Of a DNA stretch of 25,355 nt, positions 2,061-20,239 are shown one piece after another (positions within the stretch are counted from its first letter, which is position 1; each line of letters begins with the position of its first letter). The stretch is taken from IMG/VR virus record IMGVR_UViG_2563366824_000002, positions 1 through 25,355 of that record, one strand, 5' to 3'. The translations under genes were made by a program, and so were the position numbers. Source of the stretch: a virus. Taxonomy: Duplodnaviria > Heunggongvirae > Uroviricota > Caudoviricetes. The notes below the pieces were generated by a model. That model did not search any database. It was not told the DNA's origin and saw only the letters and a program-made list of their open reading frames with translations.

Positions 2061-3125
2061 TTAAGTTGTTTCCAGACTTCCTTTGGTAAAAGCTTGTATC
2101 AGTCTGTTTGCTGCTGCTTTCTGCGCTGCCACATTGGCAATAACAGATAGTTTTTCCTGGCTGGCTTTCGTGCAGATCCCCGCCCAGTTATCCATCAGAA
2201 AAAAATCCTCTCTTTCTGCAGAGCTGGTAGTTGCACATAGTTTTTCGATCATAGAAGTTATTTCTGCGATGGAATGATTAACCATCATCTGTTGAACCGC
2301 AAAACCGAAAGCGTTAATCATTACTCCATGGAACTGAATATAATCGCGCTTGTACGTAGCGTGGTGTACACCATGTCGAATTGAGTCAATCTGAGTTAGT
2401 GTAATCCATGCCTCCCAGACAGATTCTATATATCCCATTTCAAGTTGTTGATTGCCGTTCCTAGCGAACTTTGACGTTGCATCAGTGAGTGCCTTGAAAC
2501 TCACCCACATATTACTTTTTAATGGCACTACGTTGTGTTCAAAATCGGTTATATCGGCAAATACAGTATGTTGGGTCAGGAAGGATATCATTCCCTGAGC
2601 AATATCATCCCGGCCGTTATACGCCATATTGATGGTCGCTGATGGCTTAGAAACGTTGTTATTTATGTCCGAAAAGAACTGCTGCCGGGTTTTTAGCGGC
2701 AGATTCATTGTAAGCATCATGGGAACCATGAGCGTTGATGGGGAACTTCGGCAAAATATCTCAATGCCAGCTGCACGATGTTGACCATCAAAAAGTTTTA
2801 TTTCGGCGTCGAGGGGAATTCTGGCTATACCAACATTTGTGTTGCCAAACGGTACAAATTCTATATTCGAATCACAGTTACCTACGAGAGGGGGAATGAT
2901 AAAAGGCTCATTTCTTGAGTCTGCGTTAGTGAGATAATTTAAAAATTTTCGTACTCGATTTGGATTAATTTCTCGCTGAGAGCGTTCCAGTGTATGGCCG
3001 TAATTATCTGAAGCGAGGAAACGAGCCAGCGATCTTCCTGGTATGGTAAGGAAGAGTGTAACAGTACCACCCTGTACACCTTGCGATGCCGGAAATTCGA
3101 ATGAATGATTACCAACCTGACTCAT
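2061..3125 (-). CDS. DGQHR-domain protein (DndB-like, ParB/sulfiredoxin superfamily), standalone, 354 aa
   Basis: Contains the exact motif FDGQHR (…IKLFDGQHRAAGIE…) about 110 aa from the N-terminus, the signature of DndB/DpdB-type DGQHR domains. Strong RBS (AGGAGG) 7 nt upstream of the ATG at 3125. Bracketed by a 150-bp gap to exo on one side and a hairpin terminator on the other. Visibly more AT-rich than the neighbouring exo/bet. Confidence 0.75.
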   Translation of the reverse strand: MSQVGNHSFEFPASQGVQGGTVTLFLTIPGRSLARFLASDNYGHTLERSQREINPNRVRKFLNYLTNADSRNEPFIIPPLVGNCDSNIEFVPFGNTNVGIARIPLDAEIKLFDGQHRAAGIEIFCRSSPSTLMVPMMLTMNLPLKTRQQFFSDINNNVSKPSATINMAYNGRDDIAQGMISFLTQHTVFADITDFEHNVVPLKSNMWVSFKALTDATSKFARNGNQQLEMGYIESVWEAWITLTQIDSIRHGVHHATYKRDYIQFHGVMINAFGFAVQQMMVNHSIAEITSMIEKLCATTSSAEREDFFLMDNWAGICTKASQEKLSVIANVAAQKAAANRLIQAFTKGSLETT

Positions 3126-7385: not shown

Positions 7386-7925
7386 ATGCAACCACTTACA
7401 TACCAACAGACTAGCGGATTTAGCCCGACTGCGGTGATAAATCGTTCTCAAACAAAACAGGTGCCAGGCCACGAAAAAATCCGTGATGCCGTCCGCGCCT
7501 GGTCGGCTGTAGATAATCAGGATGTCGTTGCCACACTCATTGTGAATGAGTATCGGGAGCAGGGCGGCGGCACCATCGATTTCCCTGATGATGTCAGCCG
7601 TGCACGCCAGAAGCTGTTCCGCTTCCTCGATAACAAATTCGATTCTGAAAAATACCGAAATAACGTGCGTGAACTGACCCCGGCAATTCTGGCGGTACTA
7701 CCGCTGGAATATCGCGGTTACCTGGTTGAGCAGGATAGCTTCATGGCTAGGTTGGCTGAAATGGAAAAGGAACTCAGTGAGGCAAAACAGGCTGTCATTC
7801 TCAACGCACCACGCCACCAGAAACTGAAGGAAATTAGTGAAGGTATTGTGTCGATGTTTCGTGTGGACCCAGATCTGGCTGGTCCATTGATGGCGATGGT
7901 TACTACCATGCTGGGGGCGATATGA
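7386..7925 (+). CDS. YdaT-like protein in the cII position (179 aa)
   Basis: AAGGAG RBS. The segment TPAILAVLPLEYRGYL resembles what I recall of Rac YdaT. It sits between the Cro-like gene and O, where lambda encodes CII. Confidence 0.55.
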   Translation: MQPLTYQQTSGFSPTAVINRSQTKQVPGHEKIRDAVRAWSAVDNQDVVATLIVNEYREQGGGTIDFPDDVSRARQKLFRFLDNKFDSEKYRNNVRELTPAILAVLPLEYRGYLVEQDSFMARLAEMEKELSEAKQAVILNAPRHQKLKEISEGIVSMFRVDPDLAGPLMAMVTTMLGAI

Positions 7926-8011
7926 CAGGTTCAGAAATGGCGAAAGCCGGTCTGCTGGAACAGAACCGACTTTCAGGTGCAAATCGTAACACACTCATTG
8001 CGGGAGGAATT

Positions 8012-8941
8012 ATGGCAAACACTGCTGAGATATTCAATTTTCCAGTGCCGGATGCGGCACAAAAGGAGCCGCGCGTGGCAGATCTCGATGATGGTTATAC
8101 GCGCATTGCAAATGAGTTGCTGGAAGCTGTGATGCTGGCCGGATTAACACAGCACCAGCTTCTGGTCTTTCTGGCTGTCATGCGCAAAACATATGGCTTT
8201 AATAAAAAACTGGATTGGGTTAGCAACGAGCAACTTTCCGAATTAACCGGGATATTGCCGCACAAGTGTTCTGCTGCAAAAAGTGTTCTGGTAAAGCGTG
8301 GGATTTTTATTCAGAGCGGGCGGAATACCGGCATTAATAATGTGGTCAGTGAATGGTCAACATTACCCGAATCAGGTAAGAAAAATAAAGTTTACCTGAA
8401 AGAGGTAAATTTACCTGAATCAGGTAAAAAAAGTTTACCCAAATCAGGTAAAGGCGTTTACCCGAATCAGGTAAACACAAAAGACAAACTAACAAAAGAC
8501 AATATAAAACCTTTTTCGTCCGAGAATTCTGGCGAATCCTCTGACCAACCAGAAAACGATCTTCCTGTGGTGAAACCGGATGCTGCAATTCAGAGCGGCA
8601 GCAAGTGGGGGACAGCAGAAGACCTGACCGCCGCAGAGTGGATGTTTGACATGGTGAAGACCATCGCGCCATCAGCCAGAAAACCGAATTTTGCAGGGTG
8701 GGCTAACGATATCCGCCTGATGCGTGAACGTGACGGACGTAACCACCGCGACATGTGCGTGCTGTTCCGCTGGGCATGCCAGGACAACTTCTGGTCCGGT
8801 AACGTGCTGAGTCCGGCCAAACTCCGCGACAAGTGGACCCAGCTCGAAATCAACCGAAACAAGCAACAGGCTGGCGTGACAGCCGGCAAACCAAAACTCG
8901 ACCTGACGAACACTGACTGGATTTACGGGGTGGAGCTATGA
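8012..8941 (+). CDS. O: Replication initiator O (iteron-binding N-terminal domain, P-interacting C-terminus)
   Basis: ATG at 8012 with GGAGG upstream. Iterons are embedded in the coding sequence. Four-nt overlap with P. The ORF-track start at 7922 is probably an upstream extension. Confidence 0.8.
   Translation: MANTAEIFNFPVPDAAQKEPRVADLDDGYTRIANELLEAVMLAGLTQHQLLVFLAVMRKTYGFNKKLDWVSNEQLSELTGILPHKCSAAKSVLVKRGIFIQSGRNTGINNVVSEWSTLPESGKKNKVYLKEVNLPESGKKSLPKSGKGVYPNQVNTKDKLTKDNIKPFSSENSGESSDQPENDLPVVKPDAAIQSGSKWGTAEDLTAAEWMFDMVKTIAPSARKPNFAGWANDIRLMRERDGRNHRDMCVLFRWACQDNFWSGNVLSPAKLRDKWTQLEINRNKQQAGVTAGKPKLDLTNTDWIYGVEL
8366..8475. repeat. Replication origin iterons inside O
   Basis: Four direct copies of CC(C/T)(G/A)AATCAGGTAA(A/G) at about 8366, 8414, 8438 and 8461, plus inverted TTTACCTGA copies, followed by an A-rich tract (8476..8520). 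This is the lambdoid ori-in-O architecture. Confidence 0.75.
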
Positions 8942-9639
8942 AAAACATCGCCGCACAGATGGTTAACTTTGACTGTGAGCAGATGCGCCGGATCGCCAAC
9001 AACATGCCGGAACAGTACGACGAAAAGCCACAGGTACAGCAGGTAGCGCAGATCATCAACGGTGTGTTCAGCCAGTTACTGGCAACTTTCCCGGCAAGCC
9101 TGGCTAACCGTGACCAGAATGAACTGAACGAAATCCGCCGCCAGTGGGTTCTGGCTTTCCGGGAAAACGGGATCACCACAATGGAACAGGTTAACGCTGG
9201 AATGCGCGTAGCCCGTCGGCAGAATCGACCATTCCTGCCATCACCCGGGCAGTTTGTCGCCTGGTGCCGGGAAGAAGCATCTGTTAACGCCGGGCTGCCA
9301 AACGTCAGCGAGCTGGTTGATATGGTTTACGAGTATTGCCGGAAGCGTGGCCTGTATCCGGATGCAGAGTCTTATCCGTGGAAATCGAACGCGCATTACT
9401 GGTTGGTTACCAACTTGTACCAGAACATGCGGGCCAATGCGCTGACTGACGCGGAATTACGGCGCAAGGCTGCCGATGAACTGACCTGTATGACAGCGCG
9501 AATTAACCGTGGTGAGACGATACCTGAACCAGTAAAACAACTTCCTGTTATGGGCGGTAGACCTCTAAATCGTGCACAGGCTCTGGCGAAGATCGCAGAA
9601 ATTAAAGCTAAGTTTGGACTGAAAGGATCGATGAAATAG
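8938..9639 (+). CDS. P: Replication protein P (DnaB helicase loader), lambda-type, 233 aa
   Basis: MKNIAAQMVNFD.EQMRRIANNMPEQYDEKPQVQQVAQIINGVFSQLLATFPASLANRDQNE… matches lambda P nearly throughout. Confidence 0.95.
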   Translation: MKNIAAQMVNFDCEQMRRIANNMPEQYDEKPQVQQVAQIINGVFSQLLATFPASLANRDQNELNEIRRQWVLAFRENGITTMEQVNAGMRVARRQNRPFLPSPGQFVAWCREEASVNAGLPNVSELVDMVYEYCRKRGLYPDAESYPWKSNAHYWLVTNLYQNMRANALTDAELRRKAADELTCMTARINRGETIPEPVKQLPVMGGRPLNRAQALAKIAEIKAKFGLKGSMK

Positions 9640-9878
9640 AGCTAAAATATTAGCTTTAAAATAAAGTATATCTAGCGAATATAATCCAGGACTGGTTGTA
9701 ATGCCCGCAATAATTGATTGCGTGAGTAATAAAATTTTTCTTCCATTGTAATCATTTAACCATAAAGTTTATGTGGATATTTTATTTGTGTGTTGATTTT
9801 TTTGTAACGTTCTGTATATTTCGCACCTCTTGTCATACCAGTTATTTTTTTCATTATATTCATAACGTTGATTGAACT

Positions 9879-12800
9879 ATGACCACTGTGAATAAAAAGT
9901 TAAAAAAAACTGCATCTGGCGCGATTACATGGTCAGTAATTGTTACCCAGATATTATCTCCAGTTTCTCTTTCTTTGATTCCGGCAAACAGTTTTGCATC
10001 GTCTGATAATAAAGATGTTACGCAAATTTATGCTAGCGATGAGCGTGCAAATAAAGTGGCCTCATTTGCAGTAAGTGCAGGTCAGAGTCTGGCGAATAAT
10101 AATGCAAGTAGTTTTGCTGTAAATACTTTATCAACTCAGGCGACAAAAGAGGTCGTCGATTGGTTGCAACAATATGGCAATGCGCGCATCAAGCTTAATG
10201 TCGATGATTCTTTTTCCTTGAAGGATTCATCATTCGACTTTTTATATCCATGGCTGGATACTCAGGATTATGTGCTATTCAGTCAAACATCACTACATCG
10301 TACTGATGACCGTAATCAGACCAATATTGGTTTGGGGATTCGTCATTTCACTCCTGATAATGCAATGTTGGGTGCGAATGTTTTCTACGATTATGATTTA
10401 AGTCGCAGCCACTCTCGCGCAGGTTTTGGGGTTGAGTACTGGAGAGATTATTTCAGGCTTGGTGTAAATACCTATTTTGGTTTATCTGACTGGAAGGACA
10501 GTCGGGATATTGATGATTATCTGGAAAGACCCGCAAATGGCTGGGATTTTTCTGCTGAAGGATGGCTACCTGCTTATCCGCAATTAGGGGCATCTATTCA
10601 GTTTGAAAAATATTATGGTAAAAATGTCGGATTATTTGGAAGCGATAATCTGCAGGAAAACCCTTACGCAGTTACTGGGGGAATTTCTTATACACCAGTT
10701 CCTCTGATTAAGTTTTCTGCACAGCATAAGCAAGGACAGAGCAACGTTCACGATACAACCTTTGGTGTTGAGTTTAATTACCGCCCAGGCGTTTCCCTTG
10801 CTGAACAGCTTAGCAGTGACAATGTTGCAGTTATGCGAGAAGTCCAGAACCGGCGTTATGATTTTGTTGAACGAAATAACAACATTGTTCTGGAGTACAA
10901 GAAGAAGCATGCACTGAAAATCAGCTTACCAGAGTCTGTTCAGGGGGATGGCGAATCAATCATCCCTGTAACACTGACAATCAACAATGCCAGTGGTGGT
11001 ATCAAGTCTGTACAGTGGAATGATAGTGTATTCACTGCGGCTGGCGGTAAGATCAGTGGAAATGGCACATCATGGCAGGTCACTTTACCGGCTTATAAAA
11101 GCGAAGGTGTAAATTCGTGGAATGTTGGAGCCACGGTCCAGGATAATAGAGGCAACGTTTCCAACTATGCGGTGATGAATATTAGCGTTATTAATAGTGG
11201 TGTCTCGACAGCGGATTCTTCTTTTACGTTGGATGGTGATTCGTCTCCGACGATCTCTGCTGATGGTCAATCCACTCATCCAATAGTATTAAGCCTGAAA
11301 GACAGTAACGGTAAGGCATTAACCGGACTGGCTGATGACATTGAAATGTCAGTGGAATTTACTGCGGATAGCAATAGTGCTCGACAGCGTGAAACGGTAA
11401 CTGCCCCGTCATTAGGCGCGGTAGAGGAAATCTCTGCTGGTGTATATCGCTCTGTTCTGACTGCTGGTTCGCAGGCTGGTACGGTACGTGTAACTGCAAA
11501 AGTAATGGATAAAACATTTACTCTCAGTATTAAGCAAACAGCAGCAACAGAACCTGATTCTGAGGTCAGTGCTGTTTTAACCGCTGCACCAGCAGAACAG
11601 GTAGTTGGTTACAATATCAATCTACAACTGGCAGTGAAGGATTCACAAGGAAATGCAATCACTGGTGATAACACTCTGAGCTTTTATGCTCTTAACCAGG
11701 CAGAAGGAGTCGAGTTTGGGGCTGTAACGGAAAAAGACGGTGTCTATAGCGCGACAGTAACTTCAAAACGAGCTGGTAAGATTCGGATCGGTGTTAAATC
11801 GGGTAGTCACAATTTCTCAGGTATTGAGAAAGAAATCTCCTTTATTGAAGATCGAACACAGTTCGCATTCTCTCGTATTGAAGCCAGTAAAAATAATGCA
11901 TTGGCTGACGGCAAACAACAGAATACGGTGACTGTAAGCCTTGCAGATCGTTTCGGCAATGTTGTGCCCGGTTATGCTGTTACGCTGTCCTTACCTGCGG
12001 GGGTAACTCAAGTTGGTGGTGAACATGCTGTGTCAACTGACGAAAACGGTAATGCTGTTTTTGCGTTAATAAGCTCCACTCCGGGTTCTTACGTGATTAA
12101 AGCTCATGCTGGTTCTCAGATGTCTACTGAGTTAACAGTAACCTTTGCATCAAATATGATCGGAGCTTCACTGTCACTGACGCCTGGAAACAGTAGCTTA
12201 ATTTCCAATATTCCTGCTAATGGTAAGGATGCTGCGGTATTGAATGTGCAACTGACAAATACGAATGCGTCGGTCAATGGACAGAAGATTCAGCTCATCA
12301 CCTCATCTGAAGGATTGTCTGTACCGACAAATATCGTGACTGATTCAACAGGGCATGTTTCCGTACCACTTACAACGGTGAGAGCTGGTGAGTATACGGT
12401 GGCTGCACGAGTGACTGACGGTTCCCATAGTGTGGAGTCTGGCAGCGTTAAGTTAACTTTTGTACCAGATGCTGCTTCCGCAGAACTTACTATGAGTACA
12501 TCAAAACAGCAGATTGTGGCCGATGGTAGTGAAAGTGCAACAGTGGACATTCAGTTGGTTGATGCCAATAACAATGCGTTTACAGGCGATGTGGATTTAA
12601 CGGTTACACCATCGACGGGAGCATCATTGACCAGTAGTAAACTGCAGTTGGATGCTCATGGACAGGCAACAACGCAGTTCACAGCATCGAAATCAGGCCA
12701 GTACACAATTCAGGCTGAGTATGTTCTAGATGGGAAACGTATAACCGCAAGCAAAAATATTGATGCCGTGACGGATGTGAAGGAGGCTGTGTTGGAGATC

Positions 12801-13430
12801 ACATCATCTGCATCTTCGGCTGTAGTGAGCGATACCAACAATCTGATATTTACGTTACTGTTGAAAAGTACGTCAGGCGAAGTATTAAGTGGTCGAGTAT
12901 TGAATATCAAGGCATCTGGGCCGTCCAAATATGGTGCGTTGGTGGTTGATAAAACCACTGTAACGACTGATGAGTATGGTCTGGCTACGGTAAGCGTACA
13001 TGGTCGAACGGCTGGTTCGTATAAATTAACGGCGACCTTAGATGAACTTGGCAGTGATGTTAGTGAGGTGAAGTCATTCTCTCTGTATGCTGATGAGGCA
13101 AATGGAGTATTGACACTGCATAAAGATGGAGGCTATGACACAGATGATGGTACTCCAGTGGGGGTTTATGCCCGATTTGTTGACCATTTCGGCAATCCGT
13201 TATCTGGTACGGTTGAGTTTTCTGCTGGTAGTGAAGATAGTCCAAACTCTCAACGGGTTAAAATGGAGCCTGCTACAGTAACGTTACACTGGACAGGTAA
13301 TGCAGCCTCGGAGTTCAGCACCTATGAAAGCGGTTATCACTGGATTAAGGCCAAAATAACGAACAGCAAAAATACATATGAGAAAACAATAAGGACTTAT
13401 GTTGTAAAGCTCCCTGAAAAGGATAGTTAA
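9879..13430 (+). CDS. Invasin/intimin-family inverse autotransporter adhesin (1183 aa) with a long array of Ig-like (Big) repeats
   Basis: N-terminal signal peptide. Beta-domain strongly resembles invasin (…EGWLPAYPQLGASIQFEKYYGKNVGLFGSDNLQENPYAVTGGISYTPVPLIKFSAQHKQGQSNVHDTTFGVEFNYRPG…RRYDFVERNNNIVLEYKKK). Followed by about 800 aa of repeated roughly 100-aa modules. Preceded by a 240-bp AT-rich intergenic region. Confidence 0.85.
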   Translation: MTTVNKKLKKTASGAITWSVIVTQILSPVSLSLIPANSFASSDNKDVTQIYASDERANKVASFAVSAGQSLANNNASSFAVNTLSTQATKEVVDWLQQYGNARIKLNVDDSFSLKDSSFDFLYPWLDTQDYVLFSQTSLHRTDDRNQTNIGLGIRHFTPDNAMLGANVFYDYDLSRSHSRAGFGVEYWRDYFRLGVNTYFGLSDWKDSRDIDDYLERPANGWDFSAEGWLPAYPQLGASIQFEKYYGKNVGLFGSDNLQENPYAVTGGISYTPVPLIKFSAQHKQGQSNVHDTTFGVEFNYRPGVSLAEQLSSDNVAVMREVQNRRYDFVERNNNIVLEYKKKHALKISLPESVQGDGESIIPVTLTINNASGGIKSVQWNDSVFTAAGGKISGNGTSWQVTLPAYKSEGVNSWNVGATVQDNRGNVSNYAVMNISVINSGVSTADSSFTLDGDSSPTISADGQSTHPIVLSLKDSNGKALTGLADDIEMSVEFTADSNSARQRETVTAPSLGAVEEISAGVYRSVLTAGSQAGTVRVTAKVMDKTFTLSIKQTAATEPDSEVSAVLTAAPAEQVVGYNINLQLAVKDSQGNAITGDNTLSFYALNQAEGVEFGAVTEKDGVYSATVTSKRAGKIRIGVKSGSHNFSGIEKEISFIEDRTQFAFSRIEASKNNALADGKQQNTVTVSLADRFGNVVPGYAVTLSLPAGVTQVGGEHAVSTDENGNAVFALISSTPGSYVIKAHAGSQMSTELTVTFASNMIGASLSLTPGNSSLISNIPANGKDAAVLNVQLTNTNASVNGQKIQLITSSEGLSVPTNIVTDSTGHVSVPLTTVRAGEYTVAARVTDGSHSVESGSVKLTFVPDAASAELTMSTSKQQIVADGSESATVDIQLVDANNNAFTGDVDLTVTPSTGASLTSSKLQLDAHGQATTQFTASKSGQYTIQAEYVLDGKRITASKNIDAVTDVKEAVLEITSSASSAVVSDTNNLIFTLLLKSTSGEVLSGRVLNIKASGPSKYGALVVDKTTVTTDEYGLATVSVHGRTAGSYKLTATLDELGSDVSEVKSFSLYADEANGVLTLHKDGGYDTDDGTPVGVYARFVDHFGNPLSGTVEFSAGSEDSPNSQRVKMEPATVTLHWTGNAASEFSTYESGYHWIKAKITNSKNTYEKTIRTYVVKLPEKDS

Positions 13431-13442
13431 CAAAACAGAATA

Positions 13443-13469
13443 GGGAGGGCTAAGCCCTCCCACTTTTTA
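13443..13469 (+). terminator. Intrinsic terminator after the adhesin gene
   Basis: GGGAGGGC-TAA-GCCCTCCC hairpin followed by ACTTTTT, 13 nt after the stop codon. Confidence 0.7.
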
Positions 13470-13728
13470 ATTGAGACGGACTGTTTCTTAAATTCACTTA
13501 CGTTAGATATGAACTGATTATTTTTTATAACAATAAAAGACTTTTGATTTTTGAATATCAGTAAGTAATAATGATTTACGTCGACAGACTGAACATCTGT
13601 TGGTGACTTCTGCGCTAAACGGGGACGTTTATGCGCACATACAATCTAAACTCTCTTCTCTCTTCACAGATGCAGAAATGCACCTGCGATTCTTTGCATC
13701 CAACGTTTGACCTCTGCGGAGGTGAAGC

Positions 13729-14184
13729 GTGAACCTCCCACAAGATGGCATCAAATTACATCGCGGTAACTTCACCGCTATCGGTCGGCAGATCCAGCCT
13801 TATCTGGAGGACGGCAAATGCTTTCGCATGGTGCTTAAACCGTGGCGCGAGAGACGCAGTCTTTCCCAGAATGCACTCAGCCACATGTGGTACAGCGAAA
13901 TCAGTGAATACCTCATCAGCAGGGGTAAAACGTTCGCCACTCCAGCTTGGGTAAAAGATGCTCTCAAACACACATATCTCGGTTATGAAACCAAAGACCT
14001 GGTTGATGTCGTAACCGGTGATATCACCACTATCCAGTCGTTACGCCATACCTCCGACCTTGATACCGGAGAGATGTATGTCTTCCTGTGTAAGGTTGAA
14101 GCCTGGGCGATGAATATTGGCTGCCACCTGACTATTCCGCAGAGCTGCGAGTTCCAGCTGCTGCGTGATAAGCAGGAGGCGTAA
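13729..14184 (+). CDS. ybcN: YbcN-like nin-region protein (151 aa)
   Basis: GTG start with GGAGG 5 nt upstream. Translation matches what I recall of DLP12 YbcN. First gene of the nin-like block. Confidence 0.75.
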
Positions 14185-14354
14185 TGGCTACACCGCTTAT
14201 TCGTGTCATGAACGGACACATCTACAAAGTACCAAATCGTCGTAAGCGTAGGCCTGAGCTGAAACCATCCGAAATACCAACACTGCTCGGATATACCGCC
14301 AGCCTGGTTGATAAAAAATGGTTGCGACTGGCAGCAAGGAGGAATCATGGCTGA
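14184..14354 (+). CDS. ninE: NinE-like small protein (56 aa)
   Basis: Hand-translated: [56 protein letters not shown]. Basic protein in the DLP12 ninE position, start overlapping the ybcN stop. Below the ORF-track length cut-off. Confidence 0.7.
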   Translation: MATPLIRVMNGHIYKVPNRRKRRPELKPSEIPTLLGYTASLVDKKWLRLAARRNHG

Positions 14355-15791: not shown

Positions 15792-16874
15792 TTAGAACTG
15801 ATACACCAGACCTACAGCGACGATGTCGTCGGTATCAATACCAGCTGTTTTGGTAAACTTACTATCGTCAATTAAGTTGATTTTGTAATCAACAAAAGTG
15901 GACATGTTTTTATTAAAGTAGTAAGTAGCACCGACATCGACATACTTGACTAAGTCTCGGTCACCATGAACACCAAGGTCTTTACCTTTTGACTGAAGGT
16001 AAGCAACAGATGGTCGCAGACCGAAGTCAAACTGATATTGTGCTACTGCTTCAAAGTTTTGTGCTTTGTTTGCAATATGGTTATTACCAAAAACGGTCAT
16101 ATTCTGAGTTTCAGAATATGTGGTAGCCAGATAGATATTGTTCGCATCATATTTCAGGCCTGCAGCCCATACTTCCGCATTTTTGCCGGAGGCATTGAAT
16201 TTGCTCTTACCATAGGCGACCTGACCGTCAGTGCGATCTGATTTAGCATAGGTTGCACCCACGCCGAATCCTTCATACTCATAAGTAGTGGAGAAACCGA
16301 AACCATCACCATTGGCTTCAGTTACGTCAGTGCGGTCATTTTTACCCTGATACTGAGCAGCAAAGTTCAGGCCATCGACCAGACCAAAGAAGTCGTTGTT
16401 ACGATAGGTTGCAACACCAGTGGTGCGACCAGTCATGAACACATCTGTTTGGGTCCAGGTATCGCCACCGAATTCTGGCAGAACGTCAGTCCACGCACCG
16501 ATGTCGTATGCTACACCGTAGTTACGGCCGTAATCGATTGAGCCGTAGTCACCGAATTTCAGGCCTGCAAATGCAAGACGGGTTTTGTCTTTGGAGGAAC
16601 CTTGAGATTCAGCGCGGTTGCCTTTGAATTCATATTCCCACTGACCGAAACCAGTCAGTTGATCGTTGATTTGGGTTTCACCTTTGAAGCCAAGACGGGC
16701 ATAAGTAGTATCACCATCATCTGCATCGTTAGAGGAAAAGTAGTGCTTGGCATTAACTTTCCCGTACAGATCCAGCTTGTTACTGTCTTTATTATAAATT
16801 TCAGCTGCCTGAGCAGACATCGCCATCAGTACTGATGCAGCTACAGCAGAAATTGCCACTGTTAATTTTTTCAT
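15792..16874 (-). CDS. nmpC: OmpC-family general porin (NmpC-like, 360 aa), apparently intact
   Basis: Signal peptide [23 protein letters not shown], porin beta-barrel sequence and the C-terminal …VAVGLVYQF typical of OmpC/OmpF/NmpC porins. Encoded antisense between Q and the holin. Confidence 0.9.
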
Positions 16875-17462
16875 CGTGAGCCCTTTTTTTTGAACTATTA
16901 TTAAAAAATGATGTCACTGCGCGATAAATATTCATCTAATCAATGTGATTATTTCAAGATGTAAGTTTTAGTTTCTCATTTAATTTGTGAAGTAGATCTC
17001 TATTTTTATCTGAACTTTTTCTATCGAAACCTATTTATGGCTCTTATTTGAACAAAAATAAACCTATTAGCTAATTTATATTAATGGCTGTTATTTATGG
17101 GGATTCTATAATTCGGTGGTTTAATTTAAATCAACTAAAAATAACGCCGGAAATTATTTATTGGTTATTTGTTGAGGTTTTCTTATATATTTGTGGTGGT
17201 GTTTTGAACACTCGGTAGCATTCTCATAAATATCATTCAGTGGTTTACGTACGTAAAAAATTGGTTATGCTGTTAAGAGTGGTTACTTCGTCACACAGCT
17301 TAAACCCGCCGTCGAGCTGGTTTTTCCATTTTTTGAGTCTCGATATTAGCTGATAACTCAATACCTGAGTTATTCACTGACTCCGAGTCTGTTACGTTTC
17401 TGCTTTTTTGCGATACGTTGTATTCCCTCAATTTACACCCGCTTTGTCTGCGAGGTGGGGTT

Positions 17463-19572
<2,110 letters not shown>

Positions 19573-19639: not shown

Positions 19640-20239
19640 ATGCGTAAATTATGTGCTGTTATTCTGTCCGCAGTAGTCTGGCTGGTTGCCGCTGGTACGC
19701 CAGCGAGCGCAGCAGAGCATCAGTCCACACTAAGCGCCGGGTATCTTCAGACCCATACTGATATGCCAGGCAGTGATGACCTGAAGGGCATTAACGTGAA
19801 ATACCGTTATGAATTTACGGACACGCTGGGGCTGGTGACGTCATTCAGTTATGCCAATGCCAAAGATGAGCAAAAAACGCATTACAGCGATACCCGCTGG
19901 CATGAAGATTCAGTGCGTAACCGCTGGTTCAGCATGATGGCGGGGCCGTCTGTACGCGTGAATGAATGGTTCAGTGCTTATGCGATGACGGGTGTGGCTT
20001 ACAGCCGTGTTTCGACGTTCTCCGGGGATTATCTCCGCGTAACTGACAGCAAGGGGAAAACGCACGATGTGCTGACCGGAAGTGATGGCGGTCGCCACAG
20101 CAACACGTCTCTGGCGTGGGGGGCTGGCGTGCAGTTTAACCCGACCGAATCCGTGGCCATTGACCTTGCTTATGAAGGTTCCGGCAGTGGCGACTGGCGC
20201 ACTGACGGTTTCATCGTGGGTGTCGGTTATAAATTCTGA
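19640..20239 (+). CDS. lom: Lom-like outer-membrane protein (Ail/Lom family, 199 aa)
   Basis: Signal peptide; the C-terminus …AIDLAYEGSGSGDWRTDGFIVGVGYKF is identical to lambda Lom, and GINVKYRYE is shared. Confidence 0.9.
   Translation: MRKLCAVILSAVVWLVAAGTPASAAEHQSTLSAGYLQTHTDMPGSDDLKGINVKYRYEFTDTLGLVTSFSYANAKDEQKTHYSDTRWHEDSVRNRWFSMMAGPSVRVNEWFSAYAMTGVAYSRVSTFSGDYLRVTDSKGKTHDVLTGSDGGRHSNTSLAWGAGVQFNPTESVAIDLAYEGSGSGDWRTDGFIVGVGYKF

Follow-up and report, generated by a model that had tools for sequence, protein, structure and literature searches.

Inverse autotransporters of Escherichia coli were surveyed in 2019 by Goh et al., who defined seven groups (PMC6714894). IatB, IatC and IatD were located at the cell surface and promoted biofilm formation when expressed in K-12, and were undetectable in the wild-type strain (PMC6714894). 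FdeC, another member of the class, is described as an adhesin needed for colonization of the mouse kidney and as a vaccine candidate (PMC8541385). Here, we describe a prophage-borne gene of the same class. It lies in a stretch of 25,355 nucleotides (nt), referred to below as the window, which corresponds to positions 1 to 25,355 of the IMG/VR virus record IMGVR_UViG_2563366824_000002. We conclude that the gene product is a type Ve (inverse autotransporter) outer-membrane adhesin, a reading to which we assign a probability of roughly 75%. An initial annotation of the window had proposed an inverse autotransporter with an invasin-like barrel and immunoglobulin (Ig)-like repeats, and the domain searches described below agree with that proposal far beyond chance.

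The open reading frame (ORF) at positions 9879..13430 (+) encodes 1183 amino acids (aa), as the initial annotation had already reported, and is the sole long ORF of the flagged interval. ORFs on the minus strand inside it do not exceed 92 aa, and the ORF listing leaves no possible upstream extension. The encoded protein contains no cysteine. By eye, we recognized a predicted signal peptide at its N-terminus, consisting of a basic n-region (KKLKK), a hydrophobic core and, at aa 38-42, the residues SFA followed by SS. The Pfam family IAT_beta (PF11924) matched aa 69-334 with overwhelming significance (E = 1.1e-100, 337 bits against a cutoff of 22.3). The barrel is of the 12-strand type and is placed N-terminal to the passenger. 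It could be aligned from end to end with the crystallized barrels of invasin (4e1t, 48.2% identical) and intimin (4e1s, 45.3% identical). The linker that would span the pore, RYDFVERNNNIVLEY, was compared with the family motif RYDLVxRNNNIVLEY, which runs back through the barrel pore, and it aligned with the C-terminal segment of both crystallized barrels.

Scanning the whole protein against Pfam returned Big_1 (E = 2e-52) and Invasin_D3 (E = 1e-44) and nothing else of note. Scanning domain by domain revealed six Big_1 or Invasin_D3 domains between the first Ig-like domain (D00) and the last 111 aa. Together with D00, matched through the intimin structure 6tqd, and the C-terminal tip, recognized through its predicted structure, the allele in the window has eight Ig-like domains. 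Pfam detected no LysM domain in aa 1-100, where the only match, to SusF_N, was at chance level. Because the full-length single-sequence AlphaFold model was poor (predicted local distance difference test score of 34.5), we based the domain boundaries on the Pfam matches and on sequence matches to PDB entries. Judged from the sequence, the parts of a type Ve translocation unit appear complete: a signal-peptide-like segment, barrel, linker and D00, followed by an Ig rod. The features are listed in the table.

Features of the adhesin gene and its flanks in the window
Feature	Position	Strand	Basis or remark
Predicted inverse autotransporter (type Ve) gene	9879..13430	+	1183 aa, no cysteine
Predicted extended Sec signal peptide, aa 1-40	9879..9998	+	read directly from the sequence
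Predicted beta-barrel translocator, aa 69-334, with linker RYDFVERNNNIVLEY	10083..10880	+	Pfam IAT_beta, PDB alignments
D00-type first Ig-like domain, aa 335-440	10881..11198	+	match to intimin D00-D0 (6tqd), E = 4.5e-9
119-aa copy-number-variable Ig-like domain, aa 441-559	11199..11555	+	Invasin_D3, E = 1.2e-10; one copy in the window
Five further Big_1-type Ig-like domains, aa 560-1072	11556..13094	+	single scans, Big_1 E = 3e-7 to 2e-21
C-terminal tip, aa 1073-1183, predicted divergent Ig-like beta-sandwich	13095..13427	+	predicted structure
AT-rich upstream region travelling with the gene	9640..9878	+	GC content 0.28; conserved between lineages
Candidate sigma-70 promoter, -35 TTGTCA, 16-nt spacer, -10 CATTAT	9830..9857	+	consensus scan, 9/12
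Intrinsic-terminator-like hairpin and T run, 3' edge of module	13443..13469	+	scan, RNA fold, conservation
Lineage-specific AT-rich spacer (116 nt) before the ylcH-ybcN backbone	13470..13585		lineage comparison

The tip was modelled as an all-beta Ig-like fold, and its closest structural matches were Ig domains of invasin and intimin. The initial annotation had found the C-terminal ~150 aa unrecognizable and had suggested a lectin-like tip. On the first point, Pfam indeed recognized no family in the tip (Big_1 reached only E = 0.079), although structure prediction does give it a fold. On the second, the prediction disagrees: because the tip models as an Ig-like beta-sandwich, we rejected a lectin-like cap or C-type lectin-like receptor-binding domain. 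The tip is thus predicted to be a divergent Ig-like domain and not the lectin-like cap found at the receptor-binding end of intimin and invasin. Among 1.84 billion representative proteins, the tip matched only its own family, one 54%-identical fragment of 135 aa, and weakly and partially the Ig repeats of other large proteins. A word-indexed protein search with the C-terminal 228 aa recovered two fragments of the family only.

To place the protein among its relatives, we compared it with curated models and named family members. All NCBIfam scores fell below the curated cutoffs. The N-terminal model of IatC scored best (409 bits, cutoff 2400), with intimin (NF033627; 338, cutoff 1400), SinH (319, cutoff 999) and YchO (272, cutoff 508) below it, and we rejected readings of the gene as an orthologue of intimin, invasin, IatC, SinH or YchO on these cutoffs. 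FdeC/EaeH is the closest named relative, with 58.6% identity in the barrel and 42.5% in D00. Its identity is 41% for the first 684 aa and does not exceed 29% in the distal passenger; the YeeJ barrel is 54.3% identical. An orthologue of FdeC/EaeH was also rejected, given the different locus, the 41% identity over the first 684 aa and the figure of 29% at most beyond. Since strain EC958 holds fdeC at its own chromosomal locus (346514-350761) and the counterpart of the window gene in a prophage (1266117-1270382), the comparison identifies the window gene as a paralogue of FdeC and not as FdeC itself.

The strain table of the survey lists EC958 as positive for fdeC, iatA and iatB and negative for yeeJ, iatC and iatD (PMC6714894). 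Because EC958 carries the gene and yet scores positive only for those three, the window gene is none of the six named genes in the survey, and the catalogue does not cover it. The only mention of a named prophage inverse autotransporter that we found in the literature was a passing one, in a phage-therapy case report that describes EC958_1349 as a 'prophage-associated invasin-like protein' among the loci differing between two isolates (PMC8541385). Noise from mapping reads to the repeat may well account for these differences. In databases, the gene is named 'inverse autotransporter beta domain-containing protein' by PGAP, and its family is entered in PHROGs as 'unknown function' only. The gene is therefore already annotated generically, and it is unnamed and uncharacterized.

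We then asked whether the gene is maintained. Relative to the colinear EC8 allele (94% identical), the window allele shows 138 synonymous and 74 non-synonymous differences, with 18.6% of synonymous sites differing. The ratio of non-synonymous to synonymous substitution rates (dN/dS) was 0.15 for the whole gene, with values of 0.01 for the barrel and 0.11 for the tip. A full-length ORF was present in 27 of the 28 complete copies among the fetched loci, and the remaining copy was frameshifted. Matches, all with at least 90% identity, were found in 561 out of 5426 complete E. coli genomes (~10%). Taken together, these values indicate purifying selection and rule out general pseudogenization; the gene is mostly intact in related strains rather than a pseudogene there. 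The gene was also present, with 90-94% identity at the protein level, in three large records filed as plasmids (238-542 kb; NZ_AP026904.1, CP088398.1 and CP054248.1), which could be phage-plasmids or parts of chromosomes assigned wrongly.

The 357-bp unit encoding the 119-aa domain at aa 441-559 varied in number between strains. We observed one to four copies, giving alleles of 1183, 1302, 1421 and 1540 aa. The commonest allele is that of 1302 aa, with two copies, and the 1540-aa proteins have four; EC958 has 3.0 copies at 98% identity. No tandem copy of the unit was found in the window, which holds one. Both E. coli allelic lineages include one-copy and two-copy forms, so the repeat number has changed repeatedly. 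The one-copy form exists, as it occurs in the complete genome of TUM14771. AST217, the closest genome to the window, has two copies, and five contigs of the viral collection end inside the repeat. Two rare rearranged alleles were also seen: in P0121 (1064 aa), 119 aa are deleted out of register, so that D00 is joined to the middle of the repeat domain, and P0003 (1423 aa) has part of D00 duplicated together with the repeat. Both could be real or assembly artefacts.

Comparison with prophages lacking the gene revealed where the inserted segment begins and ends. The gene is flanked by lambda-type O (7922..8941) and P (8938..9639) on one side and ybcN/ninB (13729..14184) on the other. Against three gene-less comparators (a prophage of pig strain NJS001, one of an O157:H7 strain, and DLP12 of K-12, which shares the chromosomal site of the window prophage), homology ends at 9627, 12 nt before the P stop codon, and resumes at 13534-13602 depending on the comparator. 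Other cargo occupies the same breakpoints in these prophages. One has a small reverse-strand ORF, another has that ORF together with antirepressor-like and HEPN-domain genes, and K-12 DLP12 has renD-IS3-emrE-ylcJ-ybcK-ybcL-ybcM (breakpoints 9627 and ~13542). The initial annotation had placed the gene where lambda has ren; no ren homologue was found anywhere in the window, and the position is indeed a recognized variable slot, in which DLP12 has renD. In the O157:H7 prophage (locus L004, 4205-5909), the slot holds a gene with a P22AR C-terminal (antirepressor-like) domain and a HEPN-domain gene with a small partner ORF, so the P-ninB slot carries varied accessory or defense cargo. At the right edge of the slot, a ylcH-like ORF of 33 aa (13631-13732, +) overlaps the GTG start of ybcN by 4 nt and is conserved in every prophage compared.

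In all 29 fetched loci with DNA on both sides (29/29), the gene lies directly between P and ninB. P is 88-100% identical across these loci (96-100% in all but one), and O is 66-100% identical. Since the gene is always linked to P while O varies, it appears to spread with the P-ninB segment by recombination and not as an independent mobile element. Base composition also sets the segment apart, with a GC content of 0.28 upstream and 0.438 in the gene, compared with 0.528 in P and 0.509 in ninB. We regard ~9628..13469 as a self-contained cargo module, as judged from these comparisons, in a variable P-ninB slot of lambdoid prophages. The moron proposed in the initial annotation is thus supported by the breakpoints against gene-less prophages, by a hairpin located inside the cargo and by the deviating base composition.

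The AT-rich upstream region noted at 9640..9878 was confirmed, at 28% GC. The two allelic lineages of E. coli show ~90-95% conservation across it, and its last ~95 nt are near-invariant. A homologue in Escherichia albertii NBRC 107761 (locus L045, 6001-6711) is 80% identical over aa 1-237, where it is cut by the contig end, and it lies downstream of ydcSTUV-patD in a non-phage chromosomal context. The block TGTATATTTCnCnCCnCTTGTCnTACCAGTTnnTTTTTTnATTAT (~50 nt), which holds the candidate promoter, is kept in this homologue, and the sequence on both sides of it is not. These alignments suggest a transfer of the gene and its promoter as one unit between chromosome and phage, in either direction.

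At the other end, the hairpin terminator that had been noted at 13443..13469 was supported in silico. Its GC-rich stem (13443..13461) has 8 bp, seven of them G-C pairs, and a loop of 3 nt, and it is followed by ACTTTTTAAT. The predicted RNA fold has a free energy of -17.4 kcal/mol (z = -3.5 against shuffled sequences). The window and the EC958 lineage share sequence that starts at the P junction and extends to 13469, immediately beyond the hairpin and T run; after that point they diverge. The window continues with an AT-rich spacer (GC content of 0.273 at 13470-13601), and the EC958 lineage has instead ~1.35 kb with a convergent alpha/beta hydrolase gene (EC958 locus L005, 8637-9680). The hairpin is thus probably the module's own terminator and the last element conserved between the lineages. 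We rejected it as an equivalent of the backbone tR2, because it lies inside the variable segment. In the EC958 lineage, the hairpin between the adhesin and hydrolase genes would serve as a two-way terminator. No Rfam match was found in 9300-14300.

The window as a whole is a prophage at the argU/DLP12 site. It starts at intD and ends just before appY (ompT comes next in matched genomes), and its best genome match is strain AST217. The left part runs exo-bet-gam, a cI-type repressor, cro, a YdaT-domain gene, O, P and the adhesin. The right part comprises ylcH-ybcN(ninB)-ninE-ybcO-rusA-ylcG-Q, an NmpC-type porin, a holin-like ORF, an IS3-family insertion sequence (IS) element, a truncated gpJ, Lom and tail-fibre genes. 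No head, tail-shaft or other lysis genes were found in the window, and the prophage is defective because the head and tail-shaft genes are gone. In TUM14771, the gene sits in a prophage at another site that keeps packaging and head genes (terminase, portal and head protease), and it also occurs on IMG/VR prophage contigs of 40-58 kb. The gene was absent from the sequenced phages of INPHARED, where the two matches (30-32% identity) were unrelated or misfiled records.

Several other genes of the window deserve mention. The holin-like ORF (17418-17678) is cut by the IS3-family element (orfA 17685-18032, orfB 17852-18898), which abuts the truncated C-terminal domain of gpJ (18895-19572). An intact porin of the NmpC/OmpC type (15792-16874, -) lies just after Q, and the K-12 copy is broken by IS5. 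With the Lom/Ail-family protein (19640-20239, +), the adhesin and the porin make three outer-membrane cargo proteins. A YdaT-domain protein (7386-7925, +) takes the cII position between cro and O, as it does in all related prophages fetched. In the early-left operon beside exo-bet-gam, a DndB-like (DGQHR) protein is encoded at 2061-3125 (-; Pfam DndB, E = 4e-46) with no other dnd genes nearby; this solitary protein may be a defense or anti-defense gene.

From the family, the route of the protein to the surface can be proposed. It would be exported by Sec, its barrel would be inserted by the beta-barrel assembly machinery, and the passenger would be threaded out as a hairpin, folding domain by domain. 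Established knowledge of intimin and invasin is a further basis for this proposed export, insertion and hairpin secretion. The rod would present its distal domains for contact between cells or for binding a ligand, either of the host or abiotic, and the number of repeats would set the reach of the tip past O-antigen or capsule. The resulting phenotype would be adhesion or biofilm formation, as reported for FdeC, YeeJ, IatB, IatC and IatD. The layout of the locus suggests that a lysogen would transcribe the gene from its own candidate promoter near 9830-9857, probably silenced in laboratory conditions as with other E. coli inverse autotransporters, and that the hairpin at 13443-13469 would stop the adhesin transcript before the nin genes and Q. 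The module may spread with its neighbor P by homologous recombination among lambdoid prophages. Expression in the lysogen and activity in adhesion or biofilm formation are thus what we infer, from the layout of the locus and from described members, respectively.

Some observations count against the adhesin reading. Insertions of IS1 or ISEc52 disrupt a minority of the copies in sequence type 131 (ST131), and truncation affects a few. Because the prophage is defective, 'lysogenic conversion' belongs to the past of this strain. The single repeat copy in the window could be a recent loss or an assembly collapse. No Shine-Dalgarno sequence was recognizable before the ATG (AACGTTGATTGAACTATG). Promoter-like sites in the region were no more frequent than chance (11 against 9.7 expected), nor were terminator-like sites (4 against 3.5 expected), so the candidate promoter and terminator rest on conservation and not on the scan. 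The exhaustive search of 1.84 billion representative proteins returned no informative relatives of the tip, and the searched literature yielded no expression, localization or binding data for this protein.

We weighed three other explanations, each less likely than a type Ve adhesin. Several of the points above would fit a silent relic, in which the gene, as cargo of a dead prophage, would be decaying with neither expression nor selection in this strain. Lysis, head and tail genes were lost to an IS-associated deletion, IS elements disrupt some of the ST131 copies, one of the fetched copies has a frameshift, the gene lacks a clear ribosome-binding site, and inverse autotransporters of E. coli usually escape detection in laboratory culture (PMC6714894). 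A decaying gene would not be expected to show a dN/dS of 0.15 (0.01 in the barrel) between alleles differing at 18.6% of synonymous sites, a full-length ORF in 27/28 complete copies, presence in ~10% of complete genomes at 90% identity or more, and a promoter block conserved across species, and we consider a relic unlikely. It is highly improbable that the protein, in the manner of ZirT or SinH, acts mainly as a platform for secreting a partner instead of being an adhesin in its own right. The barrel scores 319 bits against the SinH model, and Goh et al. raise the possibility for IatB/SinH (PMC6714894), but the score misses the SinH cutoff of 999 bits, the window has no co-oriented partner downstream (terminator, spacer and ylcH-ybcN follow), the neighboring gene in EC958 is convergent, and the passenger is long, with at least eight Ig domains, unlike the short passengers of ZirT and SinH.

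The protein might instead serve the phage, as a large surface array that shields outer-membrane receptors, excludes superinfecting phages or clumps lysogens. Lambdoid prophages commonly carry outer-membrane cargo, and this window also encodes Lom and an NmpC-type porin. Moreover, the P-ninB slot holds defense-like genes elsewhere, such as that for the HEPN-domain protein in the O157 prophage, and the family seems confined to Escherichia prophages, one E. albertii locus apart. That locus, with its 80% homologue in a non-phage setting, means that the gene also lives outside phages. In addition, no PADLOC defense model matched, the protein is built like the adhesins FdeC, YeeJ and invasin, and the searched literature held no exclusion phenotype for any inverse autotransporter. 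We therefore think a benefit to the phage very improbable. Equally improbable is a scenario in which lambdoid phages acquired an adhesin gene from the Escherichia chromosome along with its native promoter, and retained it because a dense surface layer of adjustable length (one to four repeats) masks outer-membrane receptors or clumps lysogens and in this way limits superinfection; a role of this kind would make it the first inverse autotransporter with an anti-phage function.

As a putative adhesin, the gene product bears on several practical matters. The gene is present in ~10% of complete E. coli genomes, including EC958, the reference strain of the pandemic ST131 clone, yet it is missing from the published inverse-autotransporter catalogue. 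Because FdeC is a kidney-colonization adhesin and vaccine candidate, a mobile paralogue that has been overlooked matters for inventories of adhesins, surveys of vaccine antigens and the typing of virulence genes. The locus further offers a clear example of an adhesin that travels with the replication module of a prophage. It also shows changes in the copy number of a whole domain, a kind of variation that assemblies from short reads fragment or collapse. A specialist would find nothing conceptually surprising here; the gene is a real, ordinary and uncharacterized family member that is worth flagging.

Set beside known systems, the module resembles lambdoid morons and the cargo of DLP12 (lom, bor/iss and emrE-ybcK-ybcL-ybcM), which are likewise extra cargo with their own signals and a different base composition. 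Its place is not in the late region but within the delayed-early operon, which it interrupts between P and Q. Most single-gene morons are smaller than its 3.8 kb, and Lom and Bor are small proteins, unlike the adhesin. The protein shares its secretion class and modular build with YeeJ, IatA, IatB, IatC and IatD. It resembles intimin (Eae) in its barrel (45.3% identical) and in the match of D00 to 6tqd, and differs from it in having no LysM domain, no lectin-like Tir-binding domain and no locus of enterocyte effacement context, and in its score (338 against 1400 bits). Compared with Yersinia invasin (barrel 4e1t, passenger 1cwv), it has no cysteine and no C-terminal C-type lectin-like domain, and therefore lacks the D4-D5 integrin-binding superdomain. 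FdeC/EaeH (structure 4e9l) is 1415 aa long, compared with 1183 aa here and up to 1540 aa in other alleles, and the window gene differs from it in being prophage-borne and in having a domain that varies in copy number.

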